Below are positions 46,948 to 51,804 of a stretch of 64,000 nt of DNA, piece by piece. The notes under the pieces were generated by a model that was given only the letters and a program-made list of their open reading frames with translations, made no database searches and had not been told where the DNA came from. The position numbers were made by a program, and so were the translations under genes. Numbering within the stretch: position 1 is the stretch's first letter; each line of letters begins with the position of its first letter. Origin of the DNA: Rhizodiscina lignyota (taxonomy: Eukaryota); contig ML978122.1 in assembly GCA_010015805.1 (NCBI GenBank), positions 248,001-312,000 of the forward strand, read 5' to 3'.

Positions 46948-48157
46948 ATGGCGAAGAGCACTGACGAACAGCCGCTCACAAACTCTACTGCGGAGAAGAC
47001 AGCCATGACTTCGCAGCCAGACGATACACACCAGGACGGGGATAGTAATAATGTAAACGGCGCAAAAATAAATACTACGGCTCCACCCCCTGAGGATTGC
47101 GGCTGTGGCACCAACGAGGGAGATCTGGACGTGTCGAATACGCTTCCTACCGCAGACGTACTGAAGAAGTGTGCCGAGCTGCCTGTATACGATGCGGACG
47201 GGAAACAGCATTCGTTTAAGAGCTTGGTAGAGGGCGATGGCAGTGGGAGTAAGCACATGGTGATATTCATTCGACACTTCTTCTGCGGCGTGAGTATTTA
47301 CCCTCTTCTCGTCTTCGGCCTGTTTGTGGTTTCAAGCTCTTCATATTCAATGCATGCTCATATTGCTACTACAACAGATCTGCCAGGAGTACGTCCGCAC
47401 ACTTGCTTCTTCCTTCTCATCGTCTACCCTACCTCCTTCTACTGCCCTTACAATTATTGGCTGCGGATCTCCCGACCTCATATCCAACTACACCGCCGCG
47501 ACATCCTCCGCATACAAGATCTACTGCGATCCAAAAGCAAAACTCTACTCCACACTAGGTATGCAGCGGAGGTTACAGATGGGCCCGAAGAAGCCGGACT
47601 ACATTCAGAACAGCATGTGGATCGCGAGCCTTAAGAGCGTAGTGCAGGGCCTAACATGGAGAGGTGGGCGAGGTGCGCTGAAAGGCGGAGATTTCAGTCA
47701 GAATGGAGGAGAGTTCTGGTTTGTGAGGGGCGAAGAAGGACCGTTGGACGGATGGAACGTGGAATGGTGTCATAGGATGAGGAATACGCGTGATCATGTC
47801 GAAGTGGCGGAGTTGAAGAAGGTCATGGGCGTCGCTGCTGGGCCTACAGAGACTCCTCCTGCTACCTCTAACGAGATCAATGGAGCTAAGAAGGACGCTG
47901 AAGAGGAGAAGGGGGATGAAGCACCCGCCGTGACAGTCTTGAATGGCGATGGCGAAGTGCAGAAGACGGAGAAGGCCGAGGAGCCCGCAGAGCCCAAGAG
48001 GAGGGCAAGCAATCTGATGAGGGGCTTCAGCTGGCGAAAGGGAAGCCAGGCCAATGGAGGTGCAGCGGGTGGAGAATCCAAGGGGAAGGAGAAGGCAGGA
48101 TATACCAAGTTGGATGGAGGCGGAGCGGAGAGCGGGAAGCCCATCGAGGTAGCATGA
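46948..48157 (+). CDS. AhpC/TSA-like redoxin (AAED1/PRXL2C-type thioredoxin fold)
   Basis: IFIRHFFCG joined through intron 47290-47378 to ICQEY gives a CxxC; IIGCG, QNGGEF, WCHRMRNTRDH. Confidence 0.85.
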
Positions 48158-48758: not shown

Positions 48759-50228
<1,470 letters not shown>

Positions 50229-50364
50229 CTAGACGATCGGCCAAGATTGTAATGAACGGGACGAGAACCCCGAAAATCTGCACTGCGAAATCCGAAACAT
50301 CGTCTGGTACTTCGAAGGATGTAAAATGTAAATCAACGAAAGAGCTGAATACCAATAGAATTCA

Positions 50365-51804
50365 CTAAGCTACCCCTTCCTTTACGGCTTTCTCCTTGAC
50401 ATCTCGAACATTTGCAAGCAAACCAACGCTCCTTGTGAACGAGGCAAATGACCAAAATGCCCCTGAAAACTCCATATCATACCAGTAATTCACTGCGCAG
50501 CAAACCCCTTCTTCCGAGCAACTCTGGGATACCTTGTGGTACCACAATGCGGGCAGATAAAGCATGTCCCCTTCATTGAGAGTCACTCTCATCGGCCGCG
50601 AGTACTGTGAGAAGTCCGTCTGGCCCTTAGAAGGGTCATCTGGATCCCACGTTGCGAACGGCACAGCAGTTGAAGGGGAGTCGATTCGCACGATAAGATC
50701 GTTGTAGTGATCTTCATCCGAGTCAGTTGCGTAGGTAGATGCTGGGAGCTCTCGTTCATTGATACAAGCCGCTTCGGTTGGCGGAAGGAGCACAAAGTGC
50801 TTCTGCCCAAGCACTTGGACGTAGATGTTTTCATAATTATCCTTATGAAGCGCGGTCGTGGAATGTGAGTTTCCTGTATGCATTAGCGTGTGTAAACCAA
50901 GCGCGTCTCGTACGAGAGATAAGCTAAAACGGAGATATGAGAAGTATGATGGTGGGTGGTGGAGTGGTGAACTAATTAAGTGGCGGAGTTAACAGTTGAC
51001 AGTACCTAGCCAGAAATTGATGGCATCAGGATTGCGCTCGAGCGCGACACGGGCGAATGGAATGTCCTTTGGGACGTCGGAGAATAAGGTTTCATATTCG
51101 TTGCGGAGATTGTCGTTTTGAGTTTGGGCATAGCGGACAGGACCTGCTTATGCGTTCAGCACTCTTTCAAGCCCACAATATGTGATTTAATGACTTTTAG
51201 ATCAGAAAGCCGAGCAGGAATACCTTTGTAGTCTGTTCGAAGCTCCTTCTCTTGGATGTGTCTTACAACCGTTGCGAAATCCTCATCAACCTCGTACGGC
51301 TTTACAAATACAACACGGCCATCATCGAGCTCTAAAGGCGAATCTGCGTTGCTTTGCTATAATCAGAATACGAGGAAGAGAACGAACGCACACGTTGATG
51401 AAGACTCTGTACCTACCCAAACGGCGTGATTGCAACGTTCACCAATTGGCCCTCCATGACATGATGAAGATACTCTACGTTCCATTTACGACATGCAGGC
51501 CAATCCTTTGCACCTTTGCGTACGACGAATGGCCTGTTGCAGGAGACAAAGCGCATGAATTCCAGTGGACTCGGTTCTTCGTCCAGCTCTTCGATCGTTG
51601 GAGAGTTCAGCTCGTGGTATGTGGTTATGAGATCTTGGAGGATATTAGACTAGTAGTAGAGAGGAATGATGCAGATAAAACTAAAGTATGAGGTTCAAGG
51701 AGGAATAAAGGTGATAATTGACGATGATGAAGTTTATTTAGTCTACCTTTGATGGAGTTGTGGAGTGAGCACGGCACCTCAGCGCTGCTGTTGTTGTCCT
51801 TCAT
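50365..51804 (-). CDS. JmjC/cupin-8 2OG-Fe(II) oxygenase, JMJD7-like, 5 exons
   Basis: Spliced translation includes EPSPLEFMRFVSCNRPFVVR, VAITPFGNAD, YAQTQNDNL, PDAINFWLG, TTALHKDNYEN (HxD), YLPALWYH and AVNYWYDM. Confidence 0.88.

Follow-up and report, generated by a model that had tools for sequence, protein, structure and literature searches.

Peroxisomal oxidases release formaldehyde, and the enzyme that disposes of it is held to be cytosolic. Does a stretch of the Rhizodiscina lignyota genome nevertheless encode, behind a leaky stop codon, a second form of this enzyme bearing a peroxisomal targeting signal of type 1 (PTS1)? The question arose in a window of 64,000 nucleotides (contig ML978122.1), to which all coordinates without a locus name refer.

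The dehydrogenase gene and its neighbours

The gene occupies the following positions.

48759..50225, + strand: coding sequence of a glutathione (GSH)-dependent formaldehyde dehydrogenase / class III alcohol dehydrogenase (ADH; GSNO reductase), six exons, product 386 aa
48759-48782, 48842-48856, 48935-49049, 49109-49244, 49300-49949 and 50008-50225, + strand: the six exons (the TGA adds 50226-50228)

Exon borders were read from the sequence. All introns are of the GT..AG type with CTAAC-type branch sites, and the spliced translation is a single open frame of 386 aa. Exons were submitted singly to the model TIGR02818, which describes S-(hydroxymethyl)glutathione dehydrogenase / class III ADH; exon 5 matched at 324.1 bits (model positions 88-298) and the last exon at 101.3 bits (model positions 300-368), scores that are per exon, while the equivalog cut-off of 543.95 bits is set for a full-length match. 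Exon 5 also matched human ADH5 structures in the PDB at 2e-87, and the spliced protein shares 92% identity across 385 aa with P0008, which its source calls S-(hydroxymethyl)glutathione dehydrogenase. Among source-named proteins the closest belong to Pezizomycotina: Epicoccum and Aureobasidium reach 91-92%, followed by lichen-forming fungi and black yeasts. The window's enzyme lies nearest to Dothideomycetes proteins. Judged by these matches, the gene encodes glutathione-dependent formaldehyde dehydrogenase, the class III ADH that is also GSNO reductase. Several NCBI records call orthologues of this class "formate dehydrogenase (NAD+)" or "chaperonin 10-like protein"; these names are apparently mistaken annotations of S-(hydroxymethyl)glutathione dehydrogenase.

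An AhpC/TSA_2 (peroxiredoxin-like) gene lies upstream on the same strand (47294-48157, +). Downstream, a Cupin_8/JmjC gene (50365-51649, -) is convergent with the dehydrogenase gene, and since the two stops are only ~136 nt apart, the 3' UTRs of the two genes probably overlap.

The stop codon and the reading frame behind it

The 3' end of the dehydrogenase gene reads ATG CGG CAG GCA TGA CTA GAC GAT CGG CCA AGA TTG TAA TGA and contains these features.

50226..50228, + strand: annotated stop TGA, the proposed leaky stop (sequence)
50229..50232, + strand: CTAG directly after the stop, forming with TGA the high-readthrough heptamer UGA CUA G (sequence; PMC4207609, PMC12233894)
50229..50249, + strand: putative in-frame readthrough extension of seven codons, L-D-D-R-P-R-L (translation of the last exon through the stop)
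50241..50249, + strand: CCA AGA TTG, encoding -PRL, the candidate PTS1 tripeptide (translation)
50250..50255, + strand: tandem in-frame stops closing the extension (TAA at 50250-50252, TGA at 50253-50255)

The original prediction had quoted this end from GCA to the first TAA and translated it, through the stop, as X-L-D-D-R-P-R-L; the window matches it exactly. No stop falls within the extension, and the extended protein would end ...DMRQA-X-LDDRPRL. As in the published criterion for readthrough, UGA is followed directly by CU, here in the full form CUA G, and a short stop-free in-frame extension ends in a tripeptide, -PRL, that fits the PTS1 consensus quoted as [A/S/C/P]-[K/R/H]-L (PMC13343957).

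In Ustilago, UGA followed by CU suffices for efficient readthrough, UAA and UAG give lower readthrough, and the first two bases after the stop weigh most, with G frequent at +4 (PMC4207609). UGA CUA G has been termed a high-readthrough motif in human cells (PMC12233894). The premise that UGA-CUA(G) is an established readthrough context is thus borne out in both fungi and mammals. Folding of the 120 nt after the window's stop gave no significant structure (z = -1.24); with no structured RNA element after the stop, the short motif alone would act.

The proposed mechanism follows from this arrangement. Most ribosomes would terminate at UGA and yield the ordinary cytosolic enzyme. Because the stop stands in the UGA-CUA-G context, a small share would be expected to decode UGA with a near-cognate tRNA, adding eight residues; Pex5 would then read -PRL, and a minor pool of enzyme would be imported into peroxisomes. 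There it could oxidise S-hydroxymethylglutathione, the formaldehyde coming from peroxisomal oxidases, or reduce GSNO. We infer all three elements of this scheme, namely readthrough in this organism, import via -PRL and a role inside the organelle.

The -PRL tripeptide as a candidate targeting signal

The same tripeptide ends the catalase CatP of Histoplasma capsulatum, a filamentous ascomycete, where it brings GFP and mNeonGreen into puncta by a route that depends on Pex5; import is partial, with some of the label staying in the cytosol, and the authors describe the tripeptide as an inefficient signal (PMC10470777, PMC13343957). CatP differs in that -PRL is part of its normal reading frame and follows other upstream residues. 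No other Pex5 client found in the Histoplasma study uses -PRL.

In the window, -PRL is preceded by Arg (-4) and by Asp at both -5 and -6. Two Asp at these positions are expected to weaken a PTS1, and among the tripeptides found in genes that share the TGA-CT context (see below) -PRL is the weakest. By analogy with CatP, -PRL preceded by Arg at -4 may tentatively be taken as a weak PTS1. The description of -PRL as a PTS1 variant after a basic residue agrees with the Arg at -4 and with the partial activity reported from Histoplasma.

Survey of orthologous gene ends

To compare gene ends, metagenome contigs were scanned with the 72 last-exon residues up to the last sense codon; since the query ended there, nothing 3' of the stop could bias the matches. 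The best 80 of 560 relatives were taken. Twenty-five loci (L001-L025, 67-90% identity) were judged eukaryotic, most of them having introns and some lying on intron-free, cDNA-like contigs, and 55 (L026-L080) were bacteria-like. Each frame was followed to its stop, with five loci adjusted for an intron just before the end. Including the window there are 26 eukaryotic ends, 25 of them distinct (L023 duplicates L022), which leaves 24 distinct ends besides the window.

The 26 eukaryotic ends use TGA 9 times, TAA 12 times and TAG 5 times. TGA-CT is present in 5 of the 25 distinct ends (4/24 without the window), and [SAP][KR]L closes the in-frame extension of 4 of the 25: PRL in the window, SRL in L003, and AKL in both L018 and L019. 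The five TGA-CT carriers are as follows.

Window: TGA CTA G, extension LDDRPRL
L003: TGA CTG C, extension LQGRWSRL
L006: TGA CTG G, extension ...GGLCSRLLRM
L018: TGA CTA G, extension LERAKL
L019: TGA CTC G, extension LEQAKL

The extensions of L003, L018 and L019 are 6-8 codons long, in frame, and end in a canonical PTS1. The extension of L006 (L006:814-876, on a cDNA-like contig) runs ...CSRL and then TTA AGG ATG TAA, and so ends in -LRM, which is not a PTS1. The TTA after SRL is one base away from TAA, which would have left a protein ending in -SRL; the locus gives the impression of a hidden PTS1 that has lately decayed, or of a sequencing error.

TGA-CT is absent from 20 of the 25 distinct ends, and the window's nearest relatives are among these: L001, an Aureobasidium-like cDNA, stops with TAA (its protein is 99% identical to an Aureobasidium-named protein), L002 with TAG, and L004 and L005 with TAA. 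Other non-carriers include Penicillium- and Aspergillus-like loci, one Sordariomycete-like and one Helotiales-like locus. L007, the sister of the carrier L003, stops with TAA, as does MoSFA1 of Magnaporthe (PMC4368689). A patchy spread is typical of PTS1-coupled readthrough sites, according to a 2022 review (PMC9549241). TGA-CT with a hidden PTS1 behind this enzyme is recurrent and patchy, and it is not conserved. The original prediction had named conservation in relatives as its check, and the comparison did not refute it: the context recurs together with an in-frame PTS1 in at least three other lineages (L003, L018, L019). The support is for a recurrent trait, as the nearest relatives lack the arrangement.

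On the protein tree the five carriers are scattered, and well-supported branches force at least three changes. The L018 protein is 100% identical to an NCBI protein named Metschnikowia pulcherrima, a budding yeast; the altered CTG reading of that species is irrelevant to the L018 extension, which has no CTG codon. L003 and L019 are closest to proteins of lichen-forming fungi. Between L018 and L019, nucleotide identity is 71% across stop, extension and second stop and 28% across the following 60 nt, and the Leu and Lys codons of the two extensions differ only synonymously. The two extensions may share ancestry, and such a pattern of identity would be expected if purifying selection acted on a coding extension.

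AlphaFold, applied to the readthrough form of L018 (mean pLDDT 74), places the last strand at residues 369-373 and gives residues 377-381 a pLDDT below 50, as would fit a tail that is exposed and flexible. At two related loci (L010:1708-1752 and L012:1708-1746) the protein carries a native tail of ~13-15 residues after ...CVVSM, rich in Lys and Glu and with no PTS1; given these longer native tails, the C-terminus of the enzyme tolerates extensions.

A disordered tail, as modelled in L018, would also suit a different reading, in which readthrough occurs and the extension serves a purpose other than import, such as adjusting the amount of enzyme by destabilising it; instability or a tendency to aggregate is frequent among readthrough products (PMC7144920). 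A degron, however, needs no [SAP][KR]L end, yet 4 of the 5 TGA-CT extensions have one, and native tails of the same enzyme in Pezizales end in -AKL and -SKL (see below). We consider a function of this kind very unlikely, and return to readthrough coupled to peroxisomal import.

Chance expectation and controls

A neutral coincidence would explain the window differently. The context and the tripeptide would be chance features of a short 3' UTR in this genome, and the product a rare error with no selected function; such a reading allows a functional version in some other lineages. It sits well with the nearest relatives being without the arrangement, and with a tripeptide that is the weakest seen and is preceded by two acidic residues. 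PTS1-like ends arise by chance at ~0.4-1.4%, and the window was drawn from very many windows, so that a single case is expected by chance. It has also been argued that most readthrough is non-adaptive (PMC6550407).

The window, as the discovery case, was left out of the statistics. Among the other eukaryotic loci, CT comes after 4 of 7 TGA stops (P = 1.7e-4 against a null rate of 4.8%) and 3 of 24 extensions end in the strict pattern [SAP][KR]L (P = 3.3e-4 at the empirical null of 2/354); the joint P for a TGA-CT context and a PTS1 end is ~2e-9 to 3e-8, all of these values taking lineages as independent.

Null rates came from the same flanks. When the 150 nt after each stop were shuffled (24 loci, 2000 shuffles each; L008 was omitted, its flank being too short), a broad PTS1-like end appeared in 0.42%, a strict one in 0.15%, and CT after the stop in 4.8%. 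Real ORF ends farther down these flanks gave 5/354 for the broad and 2/354 for the strict pattern. In the out-of-frame control, the +1 and +2 frames of the same flanks, 0 of 52 ends were PTS1-like. The bacteria-like loci L026-L080 (55 loci, one of which ran off the contig end) have 24 TGA stops, with no TGA-CT and no PTS1-like extension, and 80 loci from named bacterial genomes (L081-L160) have 38 TGA stops, with no TGA-CT and one PTS1-like extension (1/80). Pooled over all bacterial ends, CT follows 0 of 62 TGA stops, and PTS1-like extensions number 1 in 134.

Several of these results are hard to reconcile with a neutral coincidence. The two-part arrangement occurs again in 3 of 24 other ends, with the joint probability given above, and CT follows more than half of the other eukaryotic TGA stops (4/7) against none in bacteria (0/62). 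The extensions are all short, at 6-8 codons, as in published cases, and native and predicted splice-derived PTS1 forms of the same enzyme exist. We judge a neutral coincidence in this genome to be unlikely, though a serious contender. A functional readthrough-derived peroxisomal isoform of formaldehyde dehydrogenase in this organism seems to us probable, with considerable room for doubt.

Splicing and native tails as possible other routes to a PTS1

Splicing across the stop is another route by which a hidden PTS1 could be reached. Gene ends were scanned for a consensus donor from 15 nt upstream of the stop to 2 nt into it, combined with a YAG acceptor 40-160 nt downstream. The 25 distinct eukaryotic ends gave 11 donor/acceptor combinations and one PTS1 match, at L013, where a perfect GTAAGT donor overlaps the stop (TCG TAA) and the predicted intron is 51 nt long (L013:1719-1769). 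With this intron removed the protein would read ...EGSLPSRGPSPSKL, its 10-residue tail closing with -SKL, a canonical PTS1 (codons L013:1794-1802). The chance of one strict match among 11 combinations is 0.02-0.06, and splicing across the stop of L013 to yield -SKL is suggestive only. The same route was rejected for the window, where no donor at the stop gives a PTS1.

Recoding of the RNA could in principle replace ribosomal readthrough in the window itself, either by A-to-I editing of UGA to UGG or by splicing out the stop. Loss of stops through A-to-I editing occurs in Fusarium (PMC13123824), and stop-spanning splicing looks possible in L013. The window has no donor yielding a PTS1 between 15 nt upstream of the stop and 2 nt into it, and the only donor-like sequence, GTGCGT at 50201, lies so close to the first YAG that the intron, at 32 nt, would be too short. 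The A to be edited in the window's UGA would follow G, and an A after G is disfavoured in fungal A-to-I editing. For editing or splicing, the CTA G context would be superfluous. RNA-level recoding appears to us improbable in the extreme, and ribosomal readthrough remains the route that we favour for the window.

The main reading frame itself may also hold a PTS1. No canonical PTS1 ends any of the 120 proteins nearest to the window's dehydrogenase. Native ends of other kinds are found in the family: -RKL in 10 of these 120 orthologues, -TKL in L022-L024, and -VKL, -IKL and -IKM in several yeast proteins. A search based on L018 added 113 new proteins, of which the broad PTS1 pattern flags two, P0212 and P0227. 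P0212 ends ...DMENL-RTVGTSKL, and P0211, identical to it at 380/381 residues, stops 8 residues earlier at ...DMENL. P0227 ends in -PKI, judged to be a weak PTS1. A search with the P0212 tail found P0235, named Pyronema omphalodes, which ends ...DMINF-RVGCAKL; P0236, named P. domesticum and 98% identical to it, stops 7 residues earlier at ...DMINL. Other Pezizales orthologues end ...DM[IV]NL. The L-to-F change at the junction in P0235 would fit a splice donor overlapping the stop or, equally, loss of the stop. In the tails of both P0235 and P0212 an Arg stands where the shorter partner stops, so that in both pairs either a lost stop or stop-spanning splicing is indicated. P0294, a further pattern match in the search with the P0212 tail, was rejected, as its tail is unrelated to the class III ADH C-terminus.

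Taken together, these ends raise a broader possibility, on which we are evenly divided: that across Ascomycota the enzyme has repeatedly gained dual targeting to peroxisomes, through three routes that can replace one another. These would be UGA-CU readthrough (the window, two lichen-type fungi and Metschnikowia pulcherrima), stop-spanning splicing (L013), and a PTS1 in the main frame (the Pyronema-type proteins).

Comparison with known readthrough systems

Readthrough-derived PTS1 isoforms among fungal metabolic enzymes were reportedly described by Freitag in 2012. Known clients of the mechanism listed in PMC4207609, PMC3798809 and PMC9549241 are PGK, TPI, GAPDH, Rpe1, Art1, LDHB, MDH1 and pyrophosphatases. 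The window resembles the Ustilago maydis cases Pgk1, Tpi1, Rpe1 and Art1 in that a cytosolic NAD-linked metabolic enzyme ends in UGA followed by CU(A), with a short in-frame extension that ends in a PTS1 (Stiebler 2014, PMC4207609). Cases of the Ustilago type are likewise patchy in fungi, and some species carry the PTS1 in the main ORF or reach it via splicing. The enzymes differ, however, and the window's candidate signal is the weak -PRL.

Mammalian LDHB and MDH1 share with the window the identical UGA CUA G heptamer behind an NAD-dependent dehydrogenase (PMC4359377, PMC4207609, PMC5133446), and they supply a minor peroxisomal pool through a hidden PTS1. In those genes conservation extends across mammals and rates of readthrough are on record, whereas the predicted trait described here is scattered. 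L013, and possibly the Pyronema-type proteins, appear to resemble the splice-derived PTS1 forms of fungal GAPDH and PGK (Freitag 2012, as summarised in PMC3798809); the window's gene differs in having no usable donor at its stop, and the L013 intron is a predicted one.

Location of the enzyme in the literature

Reviews place the formaldehyde dehydrogenase pathway in the cytosol (PMC3132611), and peroxisome preparations of Pichia pastoris lacked FLD and FGH1 (PMC4580311). Both statements count against the proposed isoform, as does the absence of the words formaldehyde and alcohol dehydrogenase from the Histoplasma peroxisome proteome paper's main text. On the other side, the S-formylglutathione hydrolase Fgh1, which acts next in the pathway, is reportedly both peroxisomal and cytosolic in Ogataea (Candida) boidinii (Yurimoto 2003), and methylamine oxidase of yeast is peroxisomal (both as cited in PMC5816127). 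Fgh1 is a different protein, with its own targeting signal instead of readthrough; peroxisomal Fgh1 and peroxisomal methylamine oxidase together offer a physiological reason for a peroxisomal pool of the dehydrogenase.

In the literature on this enzyme in connection with readthrough, PTS1 or peroxisomes, no such isoform was found described; the supplementary lists of Freitag 2012 might bear on the claim. The text of the four supplementary files of Stiebler 2014 contains no formaldehyde, glutathione, alcohol dehydrogenase, ADH5 or class III, and formaldehyde is absent from the main texts of two reviews (PMC3798809, PMC9549241). The claim that the isoform had not been described for this enzyme is consistent with the literature covered, in which no report was found. 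Formaldehyde dehydrogenase is probably a new client of the known readthrough-PTS1 mechanism, no printed description having been found.

Implications

Readthrough isoforms are invisible to standard annotation, and this case would add an enzyme and a detoxification pathway to the short list of functional stop-codon readthrough events in fungi. Peroxisomes are where amine, sarcosine and alcohol oxidases release formaldehyde. A peroxisomal pool of the dehydrogenase would bring the GSH-dependent oxidation of formaldehyde into the organelle, together with NADH production and possibly the reduction of GSNO, and it would give S-formylglutathione hydrolase a local source of substrate. If dual targeting of the dehydrogenase is as wide as the three routes suggest, it would explain why that hydrolase is partly peroxisomal in Ogataea boidinii. 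If the reading is true, glutathione-linked detoxification of formaldehyde or nitrosothiols, which textbooks place in the cytosol, would also take place inside the peroxisomes of many fungi.
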